Source: a virus
Taxonomy: Duplodnaviria; Caudoviricetes
Reading direction: 5' to 3' (one strand)
IMG/VR virus record: IMGVR_UViG_3300025715_000009
Coordinates: 224,001 to 288,000 of that record
Length of the DNA: 64,000 nucleotides
The notes beneath the pieces are model-generated. The model was given only the letters and a program-made list of their open reading frames with translations. It did no database searches and was not told the origin of the DNA. Both the position numbers and the translations under genes were made by a program. Shown piece by piece: positions 31,294 to 40,505 of the stretch; position 1 is the stretch's first letter, and the number at the start of each line of letters is the position of its first letter.

Positions 31294-33168
31294 TTATTGT
31301 TCAACTGCAGATCCAGTTGCTTGTGCTTTTCTTCTTTGCATAACCTGTCTCTCAGCTTCTAATCCTTCTTCTGGACTTATTTTTCTAACATAAGCCTGTA
31401 GTGTCATTTTAGTTTTATATGACCCATCACTTGTAAAATCATGTTCACTTTCTAATAAAATCCATTGTCTACTAAACATTTGAATTAGTGGATCACGTAT
31501 TATTCCACTTATTTCTTTTCCATCCAAATCAAATACTTTTCTAAGATAACCTTCTTCACCAGCAAAAGAGAAATCTGTTGTCATTATTGTTCTGCCACCT
31601 TCTAATATAGTTCCTATATCTGGATCACCCATAATTTCTACTGTTGCTTTAAATGTATTTTGTGCTATAATTGAAGATAATGTTTGATCCCTTGATGGAA
31701 TGTCATTGCTCATATTACCAGCTTGTAATTGTTCAGCTAATTCTCTTGCACCACCATAATTCTCAATAACTGAATCATATTCTTTTGTGACTGCACCAAA
31801 CGATGTTACTTTCTGCCACCAATTTGGTTTTTTACCCATAAAATCTTGAACTGCTTCAAAAGTATCAAATTTCTTGAGTGTTTCAAGAAATTTTTCCCAA
31901 TTTTTATTTTCTTTTAAATTGGCATATTTTTCTGCTAATTTATCTTTAAACATTCTAAATAATTGTTCGTAAGAATTAAGATCACTTTCCCAATTTAATA
32001 CTCTCTTTTTATCTATAAAATATTTATATGATAAACCATCATTATGAACTACACTTGAACTTAATGGTTCTATAAGAGCGGTTTGATCATTAAAAACATA
32101 TTTTTCTTGTCCTGCTTTCCAAAATAATACTGGTCCTCTTGCAAAATTCTTTACTCCGGCTACCTCTTTAAGCCATTGTTCAAAAAAAGTTAAACTATCT
32201 TTATTAAATATTTTAGAATCTGGGTCTGGATCTACATGCCAATCGTATTCTATTATTGTCCAAACTTCTCCATCATCATTTTTTTTATACCAAGCGTTTT
32301 GTCTTCTATATGTTAGAATCATACCTTTATCTTTAAGAAGTTTTTCATCTTCTTCTGTAATTTGCACTTTAGCCAGCATCAAATTCATCCATGTTATCAA
32401 TGGCATAGTAAATTCAATTGGTTCTATATCATGATCTCCTTGCAAAGGTCTTGCTTTATATCCAGTTGATTTACAGTTAATTATTATTTTTTTCTTGGCT
32501 AATTGTTTTGCAAAAGAGAATGTCTGATGGTCTGGTATTATATTATCTGTTCTACTTGTTCTATTAAAAATAGCAGAACGTGCAACATAGTTAATTACAT
32601 CAATAGCAGTTGGTGGTTGATTGTTGTTCTTTGTTAATAACACTTGCCAAAATTTTTCTGGGTCAGAATTTATTATATCATTCCAATCAAAACATAAAAC
32701 ATCATCAAATACAAATTCTGAATATGGAACAAATGTTCCAGATATAGACACGGCACCATCTTCTTCTATATCAAATTTTACTGATGTTAATTTTGCAGTT
32801 AGAGTATCTTTATGAATTGCACCTTGTTCTCTTATTGGTTTTAATCCAGTCCACCCAAATGATATTTTCATATCTGGTCCTGGTGAGTGTGCAATATCAT
32901 TTCCAATTCTTCCTATATCTGCAAATCTATTTGGCCAAACACCAGATAAATCTTTAATTGAAAAAGAACCTTCACGACCTTGAGGAGCAACACCTTTTAT
33001 ATTCATTTGAGTAATTAATGCTGTGCCATCTGCAGTAAACTTTCCATCTTTTGCATAAAATCCAGTTTCAGATTGATTTGTGCTAATTTTATAATAAGTA
33101 AAACGAGGTGGTCCAAGACAAATTTCTACCCATGGTCGAGATGTATTTACTATAGCATTTTCTATCAT
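31294..33168 (-). CDS. Baseplate hub-like protein (gp27/gpD-like)
   Basis: C-terminal ATVEIMGDPDI...WILLESEHDF...SYKTKMTL. Confidence 0.6.
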   Translation of the reverse strand: MIENAIVNTSRPWVEICLGPPRFTYYKISTNQSETGFYAKDGKFTADGTALITQMNIKGVAPQGREGSFSIKDLSGVWPNRFADIGRIGNDIAHSPGPDMKISFGWTGLKPIREQGAIHKDTLTAKLTSVKFDIEEDGAVSISGTFVPYSEFVFDDVLCFDWNDIINSDPEKFWQVLLTKNNNQPPTAIDVINYVARSAIFNRTSRTDNIIPDHQTFSFAKQLAKKKIIINCKSTGYKARPLQGDHDIEPIEFTMPLITWMNLMLAKVQITEEDEKLLKDKGMILTYRRQNAWYKKNDDGEVWTIIEYDWHVDPDPDSKIFNKDSLTFFEQWLKEVAGVKNFARGPVLFWKAGQEKYVFNDQTALIEPLSSSVVHNDGLSYKYFIDKKRVLNWESDLNSYEQLFRMFKDKLAEKYANLKENKNWEKFLETLKKFDTFEAVQDFMGKKPNWWQKVTSFGAVTKEYDSVIENYGGARELAEQLQAGNMSNDIPSRDQTLSSIIAQNTFKATVEIMGDPDIGTILEGGRTIMTTDFSFAGEEGYLRKVFDLDGKEISGIIRDPLIQMFSRQWILLESEHDFTSDGSYKTKMTLQAYVRKISPEEGLEAERQVMQRRKAQATGSAVEQ

Positions 33169-33776
33169 TAAGGATTCTCCGGTGGTCTATATTGTATAGA
33201 TATACCTTTCTGATTTTGATAGGGTTTTTGCGAATTTTGTCTATATTGTATTTGTATCGTTTGTGCTCTTATTTTTTCTGCTGTTTCTTCATTATAAGGA
33301 ACTTTATTGAATGAAAAAATCTTTGGTCTTATAGCGGCATTAAGTTGTCTTACCCATTGTTCTCTTAATGCTGCCATAGTATTTACTGGTTCTTGAATTT
33401 GACTTAATCCTTCAGATACTTTTACACCTCTTAACATTGATGTAAAATATTTTCTATATGCTGTTTTTGGTATCATTGGATAGCGTGTTTTTAAAACTTG
33501 ATAAATTGTATTAGAAGTAAGGACAACGTTAGCATGTCTTGAATTACGTATAAAATTAATTAATTGTGATGCAAATCCACCTAAATAATGAACATTTATT
33601 CCAACAGTATAAAAGGCATCAGACCCAATTATAAACAACAATGGTCGTGGGTCATGATGCCAGTTTCTATATGTGCAAGCGTATACTCTGCCTATTCCAA
33701 ATGGAACTACATTAGAGTTTGGTCCATAGTTTTTTCGTAATACTTGAGCAAGTCTTGCAAATAATTCATTAGCCAT
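33168..33776 (-). CDS. DNA end protector-like protein (T4 gp2-like)
   Basis: HDPRPLLFIIG...GINVHYL...AYRKY motifs. Confidence 0.6.
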   Translation of the reverse strand: MANELFARLAQVLRKNYGPNSNVVPFGIGRVYACTYRNWHHDPRPLLFIIGSDAFYTVGINVHYLGGFASQLINFIRNSRHANVVLTSNTIYQVLKTRYPMIPKTAYRKYFTSMLRGVKVSEGLSQIQEPVNTMAALREQWVRQLNAAIRPKIFSFNKVPYNEETAEKIRAQTIQIQYRQNSQKPYQNQKGISIQYRPPENP

Positions 33777-33991: not shown

Positions 33992-34252
33992 TTATTCTCC
34001 TGTTTGTGTAAAATTATATCTAAATATTTTTTCTATTAATAATCTTTCTGGATTATCGTATATAGTTGGCATAAATATATCCAAACTACTTGTTTGCATT
34101 TTATCCCAATATATTTGTTTTTTAATTTCTCTTGTTATTAAAAGACGAATATCATATATCTGTCCATTTTTGGATATTGTATCACACCACAAAATAGTAG
34201 CATCATGCATAGTATTATATTTTAATGTATAGATGCTTTTTTCTTTAATCAT
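33992..34252 (-). CDS. Small hypothetical protein, C-terminal 'xxIF' helix family
   Basis: Ends RLLIEKIFRY. Confidence 0.55.
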   Translation of the reverse strand: MIKEKSIYTLKYNTMHDATILWCDTISKNGQIYDIRLLITREIKKQIYWDKMQTSSLDIFMPTIYDNPERLLIEKIFRYNFTQTGE

Positions 34253-34973
34253 GTTTTTCTAAATAAATATCATTGACAAACATATCAGAGTAGAATTCAT
34301 CTCTCTTAGACCATTTTTTAAACAAGAAAATAATTATTCTTGCAAAAAAGTTTGCTTTAGCACCTTGTAATTCAGGAGAATAAATATTTCTTAATTCACG
34401 AGAATATAATTTACCTTTATAATATGTTCCAATATACTCTAATTTTTTAGACCTGGCTATATCAGCAGGAGCAATGATTGCTTCTTGGCCAATCTTTATA
34501 TTAATCAAATCTTTTCCAGCATCTTTATAAGATAAAGCCACCATCTCTGAACAGTTATGCATTCTATCTAATGACAATTTTTTTATTCTTTTTGAACTCA
34601 AGAATGGAAAAATGAATCCTTGTTCGTATGAATAAGCGTGTCCAATTTTATTTTTTGCTGCTTCAAGTATTTTGGATTGTGTCTCAGTATCAATTTTACT
34701 TAATCTGAAAATATCTAATGCTTCTGTTTGTGGAAAATTTTCATATGTTGTTCCAAATGCACCAGCACCAATTGTCCAACCATCTTTATCATAAATAGAT
34801 ACATGGTTATATGCTGATGATGTAAATAATTGTATACCAGCACATAATATTTTGCTTCTCTTTCCACGATATAAAACAACATCACCTGGTTGAGCATCAT
34901 TTGTAAAATCAGACTCGAATCTCTTCCCTATTGTTTTTTTTACTAAAAACGTAAATAATTTCATTATTGCCAT
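34245..34973 (-). CDS. Permuted papain-like NlpC/P60 amidase (YiiX/YebB-like)
   Basis: QPGDVVLY, YNHVSIY (His before Cys), GHAYSY, NCSEMVA, IAPADI. Confidence 0.85.
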   Translation of the reverse strand: MAIMKLFTFLVKKTIGKRFESDFTNDAQPGDVVLYRGKRSKILCAGIQLFTSSAYNHVSIYDKDGWTIGAGAFGTTYENFPQTEALDIFRLSKIDTETQSKILEAAKNKIGHAYSYEQGFIFPFLSSKRIKKLSLDRMHNCSEMVALSYKDAGKDLINIKIGQEAIIAPADIARSKKLEYIGTYYKGKLYSRELRNIYSPELQGAKANFFARIIIFLFKKWSKRDEFYSDMFVNDIYLEKHD

Positions 34974-35607: not shown

Positions 35608-36396
35608 TTATAATCTTTTAAGGTATCTATCCAGATTCTTTACATCTTTCATATTAGATGCTTTTTTCTGAAGAGATTTTAATTGAGGTGGAGAAAATTC
35701 TTTTTTATATTTCCATAACATATAAGCAGCAAGTGATGCTAATATTACAGAGAACTTAAGTGTTGCTTTAAAAGAATAATCTTTAAATGAAAAAGAGAAA
35801 TCAAATAAATCAGTTGCAAATTTTTGTATAAAACCAAATTCAGAATGTTGTAGTTTATTTGGTTTTAGTGCCTCTTTAAATTTTTTGGCTAAAAAATTAC
35901 CTAAATCTATTTGTGATGAGTTAGCATATACGTTTAACGGGAGGAGTGCTCTTGTTTTATAAACAAGAGATATGGGCGGAGAGAACTTTTGTTTAACAGA
36001 AGAAAAATTATCTTTTATCCATTTTTCTGCATCAAATACATATTGCATTTTTTGTTTATCAATATGTTTTAATGTATAATATTTTTCTTCTCCTGGTCTT
36101 GAACGAGATGAAATAAATTCTTTATAAAAGTTTTCTAATTGTTGTTGGGTTGCTTCTCTTTTATTTGTTGGCATAGGAGGTCCAGGCCATTCTAATCTAT
36201 ACCACATCATCCACTCACCTTTATATTCATTAATCATAAATCTTGATGTTGTTAAAATTAATTTCTTTTGTGATTGTGGTATGATTTGAGTGTCTGGATA
36301 TGAACGATTTTGTTGTTGCGGTGGAAGAATTGCATCAACTGCTTTTGTTTGTGGAGTAATAGTAAGTTGTTGTGATAAAAGACTTGCTAAATCCAT
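35608..36396 (-). CDS. Hypothetical protein with hydrophobic segment near C-terminus
   Basis: FSVILASLAAYMLW. Confidence 0.65.
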   Translation of the reverse strand: MDLASLLSQQLTITPQTKAVDAILPPQQQNRSYPDTQIIPQSQKKLILTTSRFMINEYKGEWMMWYRLEWPGPPMPTNKREATQQQLENFYKEFISSRSRPGEEKYYTLKHIDKQKMQYVFDAEKWIKDNFSSVKQKFSPPISLVYKTRALLPLNVYANSSQIDLGNFLAKKFKEALKPNKLQHSEFGFIQKFATDLFDFSFSFKDYSFKATLKFSVILASLAAYMLWKYKKEFSPPQLKSLQKKASNMKDVKNLDRYLKRL

Positions 36397-36668
36397 TATT
36401 GTGTATCTACCTCAAACGCATTATTTTTATAATAATCACTTATTGATATTTGTTGACCAAATATAAATTTAATTACTAATTTATAAAATATTGGCTTAAT
36501 GTTTTTTAATTCTACACCTTCTACTTTGCTATATATTTTTCTAACTTGAAAATCAAATTTACCAATTAAATCATATGCCCAATACATTGACTCTGTTTTT
36601 ACTATTAAAATAGGTCTATATATATTTGATTCACCATAACCACTATGCCATATAGCAAGAATTTTCAT
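36396..36668 (-). CDS. Small hypothetical protein, C-terminal 'xxIF' helix family
   Basis: YKLVIKFIFGQ. Confidence 0.55.
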   Translation of the reverse strand: MKILAIWHSGYGESNIYRPILIVKTESMYWAYDLIGKFDFQVRKIYSKVEGVELKNIKPIFYKLVIKFIFGQQISISDYYKNNAFEVDTQ

Positions 36669-36928
36669 TCTTCTAAGTATCCTTGTATCTCTTCGCGAGT
36701 ATATTTACTAAGCCATTTTTTGAATGTTGCATATTCAAATTCTTCTTTTTCTTCTACTTTTATTTCTTGAATTCTTTTAATATCATCAACTATCTCAGAA
36801 ATTATCTCTTGTTTATTTTCTATTAACTCCTCTATTAAAGAATCAAAAAGCCTTTCGGCCTCACTTGAGATGTTATCTTTCCACAATTTTACGTTGATTA
36901 AATTAAAAAAATCTTCTGCATTTTTCAT
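36665..36928 (-). CDS. Hypothetical acidic helical protein
   Basis: Operonic overlaps. Confidence 0.6.
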   Translation of the reverse strand: MKNAEDFFNLINVKLWKDNISSEAERLFDSLIEELIENKQEIISEIVDDIKRIQEIKVEEKEEFEYATFKKWLSKYTREEIQGYLEE

Positions 36929-37344
36929 TCTTCTGTTTTTATACCTTGTTTAAATGATTCTCGCGACTGCACTCTTTCTCTATCCAAGTCATATAATCTC
37001 TTAAATTTATAATGACTAAATATACCGTCATTACTATAATCCTTCAAACACTCCAGAATAATTGGAAATTTACCAGTCAATGCATGAATTTCTGTAATTA
37101 AAAATGCACTGAATATTGGTAGTCCTGGTAAATTTATAATAAAGAAATCTTTTTGAAAAAAAATAGTTTTATTTTTTTCAATCAAATCATGCACTTGAAT
37201 ATATGTGCTATATTTTTTTAAATTCAAAGATGCTGGAACACTTATCTGTTCTATTTTAATATTGTGTTCTTTCTCAATTGCATCAATTACATTTTGATGT
37301 AGTTCTGCTCCAAAATTTATAAGATTAACTTGTTGCTCTGACAT
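36925..37344 (-). CDS. csx15: Csx15-like (CARF-related) protein
   Basis: LINF..EL....IE...I.VP...IINLPGLPIFSAFLITEIHALTGKFPII matches recalled Csx15 pattern LNFSHPL...VNPPGL..AA.LLAELHG..G.FP. Confidence 0.65.
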   Translation of the reverse strand: MSEQQVNLINFGAELHQNVIDAIEKEHNIKIEQISVPASLNLKKYSTYIQVHDLIEKNKTIFFQKDFFIINLPGLPIFSAFLITEIHALTGKFPIILECLKDYSNDGIFSHYKFKRLYDLDRERVQSRESFKQGIKTEE

Positions 37345-37424
37345 TTTTACCCCCAAAGAAAGATAAATATTCTTTGTATTATCTTATATAATTTTAGAGT
37401 AATGTTGATAATTTTAGATGAGAT

Positions 37425-39074: not shown

Positions 39075-39314
39075 TTAATTCTCCGATATTTGTCTTATTT
39101 TATTATTTTCGTCATAAATTATTGTAATTCTATTTGGCACAAAATCTATTGCTACTACAGTTTGTGGTCCAATATATCTTACTGTTTTATATCCTAATTC
39201 TTGAATTACTTTTTGGACCATGTTTTTATCTGGCCATACTTGTAATATTTTGTAATATTTCTCTACCAATTCTGGATTTTCATTTCGTAATAATAATTTT
39301 GCTTTCTCAATCAT
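39075..39314 (-). CDS. Peptidase inhibitor I78/I13-like protein
   Basis: VRYIGPQTVVAIDFVPNRITIIYDENNKIRQI resembles R.I.PG..VTMDY.PDRLNI.VD..G.I. Confidence 0.6.
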   Translation of the reverse strand: MIEKAKLLLRNENPELVEKYYKILQVWPDKNMVQKVIQELGYKTVRYIGPQTVVAIDFVPNRITIIYDENNKIRQISEN

Positions 39315-39316
39315 TT

Positions 39317-39574
39317 TTATCCCTCACGTATTGCAGAAATCATATTGTTTTCATTAAAAAAAATATTTATTCTATTATATCCATGATTTAACGGCGTAAT
39401 ATCTTCACAATGAATATATCGTATATCTTTATAACCGTATGTTTTTATTATGTTATTAATTTTCTTTTTGTTTGGCCAAGCAATTAAAATATTTGACCAT
39501 TTGTTTATTAATTCTGAGTCATAGCCAAGTAATAGTAATTTTGCTTTTATAACTGATTCTTCCATATTGGGCAA
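39317..39574 (-). CDS. Peptidase inhibitor I78-like paralog
   Basis: IRYIHCEDITPLNHGYNRINIFFNENNMISAIREG; N-terminus paralogous to 39075-39314. Confidence 0.5.
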   Translation of the reverse strand: MPNMEESVIKAKLLLLGYDSELINKWSNILIAWPNKKKINNIIKTYGYKDIRYIHCEDITPLNHGYNRINIFFNENNMISAIREG

Positions 39575-40233
39575 TATCCTTTTTTATATTCACACCATTT
39601 ACACCCATAACTTTGTGTTGGTTCCCATTTTTTATTTGTCTCTATTTCAAAGATAATATCTTTTATTTCTTTTTCAAACAAATTAATTTGTACATCATTA
39701 AATAATATCTTATCTTCTTCATTTATTCTTGGATAGTAAATAATACACTTAATATCTTTGGGTTGACAATTCCATTTTTTACTTAATATTAAATTATATA
39801 ATTTCATTTGAAAAAGATGATTATCTCTAAAATTTGATTTAGATGTTTTATAATCTGCAAACATTTTATCCTTGATAAATAACTTATCTGCAAGACCATA
39901 AACCCAATAATCTTCTGTTTGCAATTCTAATTCTTGCTCATTAAGAGATTCATATTTAGAATATTTATTTAACCAAGAAAATAAATTTTCAATAGTTTGT
40001 GGAACAAGAGATTTAAACTCTTTATCTAAAGAAGATTTATATTTATTTACTATTTCTAATATTTGTTTATAATTCTTGCCAGTATAAAATTCTGCCACCT
40101 CATGAATCATTTGACCAAACATTGTATCAGAGGTGATTGGTTTTTCTAATTTAAGTTCTTTATTATAATATAAATCATATTTCAATTTACAAGATTTATA
40201 TGTCTTTATTCCAGATGCTGAATATCTTTTCAT
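39547..40233 (-). CDS. PD-(D/E)XK nuclease, RecB/Cas4-like
   Basis: YSASGIKTYKSC, GLADKL, DYKTSK, QMKLY, CKWCEY..YC. Confidence 0.85.
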   Translation of the reverse strand: MKRYSASGIKTYKSCKLKYDLYYNKELKLEKPITSDTMFGQMIHEVAEFYTGKNYKQILEIVNKYKSSLDKEFKSLVPQTIENLFSWLNKYSKYESLNEQELELQTEDYWVYGLADKLFIKDKMFADYKTSKSNFRDNHLFQMKLYNLILSKKWNCQPKDIKCIIYYPRINEEDKILFNDVQINLFEKEIKDIIFEIETNKKWEPTQSYGCKWCEYKKGYCPIWKNQL

Positions 40234-40247
40234 TAGTATAAATATGC

Positions 40248-40505
40248 TTATGTGTATTGTGTATTAATTTGTTTAATGTCTATCTCAAATATAGTTTTAA
40301 TCATATCATGAAAATTATTAGATTTATAAATATGGGGCTGTTCTAACATTGCTCCTCCCCATATATCTTTGGTAAAAATTTTACCGCTTCTTAGAACAGT
40401 AAATCCTATATATCTATTGTCTTCTTTATTATAAATATATACATATCCTGCTATATGTGTTGATGAGCCTGCGTATATTATAAACAATTTATTTAAATAA
40501 TTCAT
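40248..40505 (-). CDS. Small hypothetical protein, C-terminal 'xxIF' helix family
   Basis: FHDMIKTIFEI. Confidence 0.55.
   Translation of the reverse strand: MNYLNKLFIIYAGSSTHIAGYVYIYNKEDNRYIGFTVLRSGKIFTKDIWGGAMLEQPHIYKSNNFHDMIKTIFEIDIKQINTQYT

Follow-up and report, generated by a model that had tools for sequence, protein, structure and literature searches.

The gene examined here, which encodes a protein of 139 amino acids in a 64-kb stretch of DNA (the window; positions 224,001 to 288,000 of virus record IMGVR_UViG_3300025715_000009, a 388,268-bp, 98% complete sludge phage), belongs in both sequence and fold to Csx15, a family whose members bind or degrade the molecules with which bacteria raise an antiviral alarm, and its product lacks what the catalysis of a Csx15 ring nuclease requires. 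What is new is this catalytically disarmed branch, whose members behave like core genes in large T4-like phages; a phage Csx15 as a candidate anti-CRISPR is not new in itself. Reading from sequence, we propose, at a probability of about one half, that the protein binds cyclic oligonucleotides without cutting them and is used as a sponge.

The gene product, called identically on 20 public contigs, matches the NCBIfam model NF040560 (CAS_Csx15; E value of 4.3e-9, 36.7 bits against a curated cut-off of 35 bits, profile positions 2-123 of 125), as do all 97 aligned homologs (97/97). A profile-profile comparison (hhalign) with canonical Csx15 gives a probability of 99.65% over 133 columns, and the protein has the five-stranded, CARF/SAVED-like Csx15 fold with its beta4-beta5 hairpin. 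These results bear out the first-pass annotation, which had recognized Csx15 in the sequence pattern. Its remark that the window holds no cas genes or array also extends to the whole record, in which no Cas10, RAMP, Cas1, or CRISPR-like array was found, and no RAMP was found in five related phage records; a phage-encoded type III system that could explain the gene was thus looked for genome-wide, and none does. The gene is therefore neither linked to a type III locus nor co-occurring with Cas10, as a CRISPR-associated Csx15 would be, and about 25% of cellular Csx15 genes are likewise orphans (PMC13148439). A weak Cas10-palm match in the phage genome proved to be a GGEEF diguanylate cyclase and not Cas10. 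AcrIII-1, Csx20, Tad2, and 2H enzymes were not detected in the phage records examined.

The loss of catalytic residues emerges from a comparison of 102 close homologs (the branch, 58-100% identity) with 115 canonical Csx15 sequences. The canonical alignment was built from His-bearing sequences, and its percentages describe that cluster and not all Csx15; within it, 114/115 sequences carry the motif-I His and 109/115 the last catalytic tail Arg (R125 of HaCsx15, R126 of CsCsx15). No branch member has the His, with A, S, T, or V in the 99 that have a residue at that position, and none has the Arg (0/102), position 131 being F or Y in 100/102. The alignment register is fixed because many canonical sequences share the exact CsCsx15 numbering H8/R119/R123/R126, and a charge swap at positions 98 and 116, from canonical R/E to E/R in the branch, agrees with the alignment. 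The phage protein itself lacks both residues by which a ring nuclease or AcrIII-3 is recognized, the motif-I His and the tail Arg. Mutation of either H8 or R125 in HaCsx15 abolishes catalysis and leaves cyclic tetra-adenylate (cA4) binding and polymerization intact, and because the equivalents of both are gone from the whole branch, a ring nuclease is unlikely. We therefore disfavor that half of the earlier suggestion of a type III anti-CRISPR acting as either a ring nuclease or a sponge for cyclic oligoadenylate (cOA).

An active ring nuclease with relocated residues, in which K132 would stand in for the last Arg and one of H87, H52, and a conserved Ser for the motif-I His, also appears quite unlikely. 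These residues are indeed well conserved in the branch (K132 in 101/102 members, H87 in 97/102, H52 in 92/102, S39 in 100/102, and S46 in 101/102), H90 contributes to CliCsx15 activity, and a Ser in motif I is used by Crn1 (PMC13148439). However, the motif-I His is essential in both HaCsx15 and CliCsx15 and R125 in HaCsx15, the variation among A, S, T, and V at position 13 indicates that it is not a fixed nucleophile, and H52 and H87 are not kept across the wider His-less branch.

Together with H87, the branch keeps the binding arginines R124 and R128 (each in 102/102 members) and a Y or F at position 112 (101/102), so that the phage protein carries the residues of a cA4 binder, namely, tail arginines, a stacking aromatic, and an interface His. 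In the mechanism that we infer, from oligomeric state, binding, and ligand to timing of expression and anti-defense role, the disarmed Csx15 would probably be dimeric, as are other Csx15 proteins, and would bind either cA4 from type III CRISPR or a cyclic trinucleotide signal (cA3 or cAAG type) of CBASS (antiphage signaling systems based on cyclic oligonucleotides). Y112 and L75 of one dimer would stack the ligand, and the tail arginines R124 and R128, with K132, of the next dimer would clamp it, producing a head-to-tail stack of the kind expected of Csx15 cA4 binders, whose dimers form filaments when ligand is added. Because the ring could not be cut by the known mechanism, the signal would be held as by a sponge, and host nucleotide-signaling immunity would be blunted. 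By analogy, such binding is made plausible by CbCash, whose His-less Csx15 domain can bind cA4, and sponging by PfCsx15, which shows that the Csx15 family can act in this way.

Several observations weigh against a sponge. A His-less Csx15 need not sponge effectively, because PfCsx15 H11A loses sponging and HaCsx15 H8A protected no E. coli cells, and the large cOA output of type III systems may defeat stoichiometric sponges (PMC13148439). Distant His-less members are also without H87 and often without R124. One comparison shows the gene to be more conserved than the capsid protein, and another shows it to be more conserved than the helicase, which is unusual for an accessory anti-defense gene; its constant pairing with the same partner gene points to a housekeeping role.

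The distant members belong to a wider His-less Csx15 radiation, which came to light when 1.8 billion representatives were searched with a profile. In a quick tree with few columns and no bootstrap, His-less sequences fall together on one side of a split (33 of the 35 rows there are His-less; Shimodaira-Hasegawa-like approximate likelihood ratio test support, 95). No cas genes were seen in any His-less context opened, and the longer contexts are large-phage gene clusters. One member, P0111 (L014:4496-5347), is a 283-aa protein in which a His-less Csx15 domain occurs twice in tandem. It may be a viral counterpart of the Csx15-Csx15 fusions from which SAVED has been proposed to derive, and its contig also encodes a helicase homologous to the UvsW-like one of the phage. 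Csx15 sequences that retain the His were encountered as well (P0122, on a Logan SRR14699982 contig, with P0134, P0135, P0131, and P0136); P0122 lies among a run of small phage-like genes without annotation, and the quick tree separates it from the His-less branch; it would be a better candidate for an active AcrIII-3.

Conservation was compared with three relatives whose records are partial and were found via the Csx15-like gene, which favors its rank somewhat; it ranked first of 74 common proteins in one (76%, against a median of 38%), first of 97 in another (63% against 42%), and sixth of 78 in the third (54% against 42%), where the capsid protein was lower, at 49%. An independent search by a neighboring gene yielded four phages at ≥46% identity, all of which carry the Csx15-like gene (4/4), including one overlooked by the direct scan; it was not seen in two very distant, fragmentary hits of the same search. 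Where residues are identical, the codons differ in 38-61% of cases, and GC content at third codon positions tracks each genome, which argues for old inheritance under purifying selection and not for recent transfer.

This core-gene conservation keeps open a sensor or regulatory role, our main rival explanation, which we nevertheless regard as somewhat unlikely: a disarmed Csx15 would bind a host alarm nucleotide, or another small nucleotide, and signal to a partner that adjusts the phage program. The partner would most likely be the 262-aa protein encoded downstream, whose pairing with Csx15 persists down to about 31% Csx15 identity. There is a precedent in Cash, in which a His-less Csx15 domain serves the nuclease, and the constant gene pair under one conserved promoter, the residues that are invariant specifically in the branch (S39, S46, E98, C99, K115, R116, R122, and E123), and the presence of other nucleotide-signaling genes in these phages would all suit such a role. 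However, no 262-aa partner was detected next to L090, L092, L012, and L014, which are more distant His-less members, and the partner evolves much faster (24-55%) and has no recognizable effector fold, fold comparisons having returned no match; furthermore, the protein keeps the tail arginines that sandwiching between dimers needs, whereas in Cash cA4 is bound inside one dimer. The signaling genes in question are GGDEF genes, present in 2/6 genomes of these phages, and a gene for a receiver-HD protein. The phage itself encodes the GGEEF diguanylate cyclase, with a hydrophobic N terminus (G000 336114-336569; L089:1483-2157, minus strand), and a receiver-HD (HD-GYP-like) protein (G000 367146-368111), 56% conserved in one relative. 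The two proteins suggest that the phage manipulates cyclic di-GMP.

The gene usually follows that for a 5'-3' exonuclease, at a fixed site between nuclease/replication genes and the tail module. Its upstream AAGATAA motif, described in the first-pass annotation as the gene's own, is present and promoter-like but not peculiar to it, since AAGATAA occurs in 47/187 upstream gaps of the genome (6.9 expected). It stands ahead of tail-tube, baseplate, fiber, and portal units, and AAGATA lies upstream of the Csx15-like gene in 18/21 homologous loci against a background of 14%. A motif of another kind, GCATA(T/C)T, is seen with the RecA, gp32, and polymerase genes; ligase is one of the exceptions to this division. 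A second upstream motif, (A/T)GCATATTT, occurs genome-wide (e.g., at about 40233-40250 of the window), ahead of RecA, gp32, Mre11, and polymerase units, and is probably a second promoter class. AAGATAA may be a late promoter. If so, cA4 and a CBASS trinucleotide would be equally plausible targets; CBASS trinucleotides are among the molecules on which Csx15 proteins act, and prohead proteases can trigger CBASS late. The fixed site, the promoter class common to virion genes, and the presence of the gene in all four independently found phages would also agree with a fold repurposed for a core role unrelated to immune nucleotides, for example, as a virion or assembly protein or an RNA- or DNA-binding factor. 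We consider this very unlikely, as the residues in common with canonical Csx15 include those lining the cA4 site (R124, R128, H87, Y112, and L75), and no such role is known for the Csx15 family.

Features of the Csx15-like locus, in window coordinates
Feature	Coordinates	Strand	Remark
Csx15-family gene, 139 aa	36925..37344	-	His-less large-phage branch; starts at ATG
AAGATAA promoter-like motif, coding strand	37379..37385	-	Genome-wide, frequently ahead of virion genes
GGGGG Shine-Dalgarno-like run	37350..37354	-	5 nt ahead of ATG
Motif I, N10-F11-G12-A13	37306..37317	-	Ala in place of catalytic His (canonical NFSH)
H87 and Y112	37009..37086	-	Both retained; H87 = Pf H82 / Cli H90; Y112 = Ha F106 / CbCash F275 (adenine stacking)
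Tail helix with R124, R128, F131, K132	36949..36975	-	R124, R128 = Ha R118, R122; F131 in place of catalytic Ha R125
87-aa gene	36665..36928	-	Overlaps Csx15-like stop codon; homologs follow in many, not all, loci
262-aa gene, candidate partner	35608..36396	-	Homolog downstream in nearly every close-branch locus reaching far enough

Other genes nearby were also of note. A 202-aa gene of no known family (33168-33776, minus strand) is 45-80% conserved across the same phages and has an invariant YRNWxxDP motif, and a permuted papain-like (YaeF/YiiX, C92) amidase-like gene (34245-34973, minus strand) falls below its family cut-off. Of two adjacent small open reading frames (39075-39314 and 39317-39574, minus strand), the first is above the Pfam Inhibitor_I78 cut-off and the second is paralog-like by eye; the pair was not seen at the corresponding site in relatives' loci. 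Just past the window lies a tRNA with anticodon CUA (amber suppressor-like; G000 293264-293335), one of 59 tRNA calls, although the coding density under translation table 11 is 94%. Two contigs of the phage group, L039 (CAZLSE010000008.1) and L040 (CAZYLG010000001.1), sit within GTDB metagenome-assembled genomes labeled Gammaproteobacteria and Thermoplasmatales and are probably misbinned.

A bolder reading, to which we give somewhat less than even odds, is that a wide lineage of large T4-like phages keeps, among its most conserved core genes, a disarmed Csx15 that would be the first sponge or sensor of the CARF superfamily directed at the cyclic-oligonucleotide alarms of the host (type III cA4, CBASS trinucleotides, or both) and that might relay the alarm to a phage partner. 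Of three papers from 2024-2026, a 2024 survey found no Csx15 among 28,114 phage genomes, Chi et al. concluded that Csx15 might be of no use as an anti-CRISPR (PMC13148439), and an October 2026 preprint described more than 20 metagenomic viral Csx15 sequences, rare and mostly prophage-borne, that were tentatively named AcrIII-3, proposed without testing, and presumed active (10.64898/2026.10.26.761840). The branch contradicts both views, the doubt that cultured phages inspired and the presumption of activity, since it is common among large uncultured phages, is held under very strong purifying selection, and is missing its catalytic residues. If cOA is bound, these phages would provide either a natural test of whether sponging, which some have argued is ineffective against type III CRISPR, can work or evidence of phages reading a host alarm, and a protein of 139 residues is directly accessible to existing Csx15 assays.

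Among known systems, AcrIII-2/vSAVED (PDB 9R8S) differs in being a pseudo-dimeric SAVED monomer with a catalytic His128, at 4% identity. AcrIII-3/vCsx15 (URC17498, Lokiarchaeota virus Skoll; 10.64898/2026.10.26.761840) is, like the phage gene, a viral Csx15 proposed as an anti-CRISPR; AcrIII-3 as described is rare, found mostly in prophage regions, and presumed active, whereas the phage branch comprises more than 100 sequence clusters of a core gene without catalytic residues. Some branch members may be among the preprint's viral sequences, as canonical queries can reach the branch by BLAST. With the ring nucleases HaCsx15 and CsCsx15 (10.64898/2026.10.26.761840) and CliCsx15 (PDB 9TEU; PMC13148439), the phage protein shares length, topology, the motifs NF, Q, PG-L, EIH-G-FP, and L-x3-R-x3-R, the binding arginines, the stacking aromatic, and the interface His, but, unlike them, it has no motif-I His, no last Arg, swapped charges at 98/116, and no type III link. 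PfCsx15 (PDB 9TET), a cA4 sponge, is likewise an orphan proposed to act by sequestration, although it is encoded by cells, retains H11, on which its sponging depends, and matches the phage branch weakly by profile (E value of 0.003). The best PDB match to the His-less profile is the CbCash Csx15 sensor domain (PDB 9YLU; E value of 1.7e-4; PMC13462974), which is fused to a Schlafen tRNase in a defense role, whereas the phage protein is stand-alone; this domain also has no motif-I His, and it binds cA4 via two hydrophobic/aromatic residues that have equivalent positions in the phage protein.
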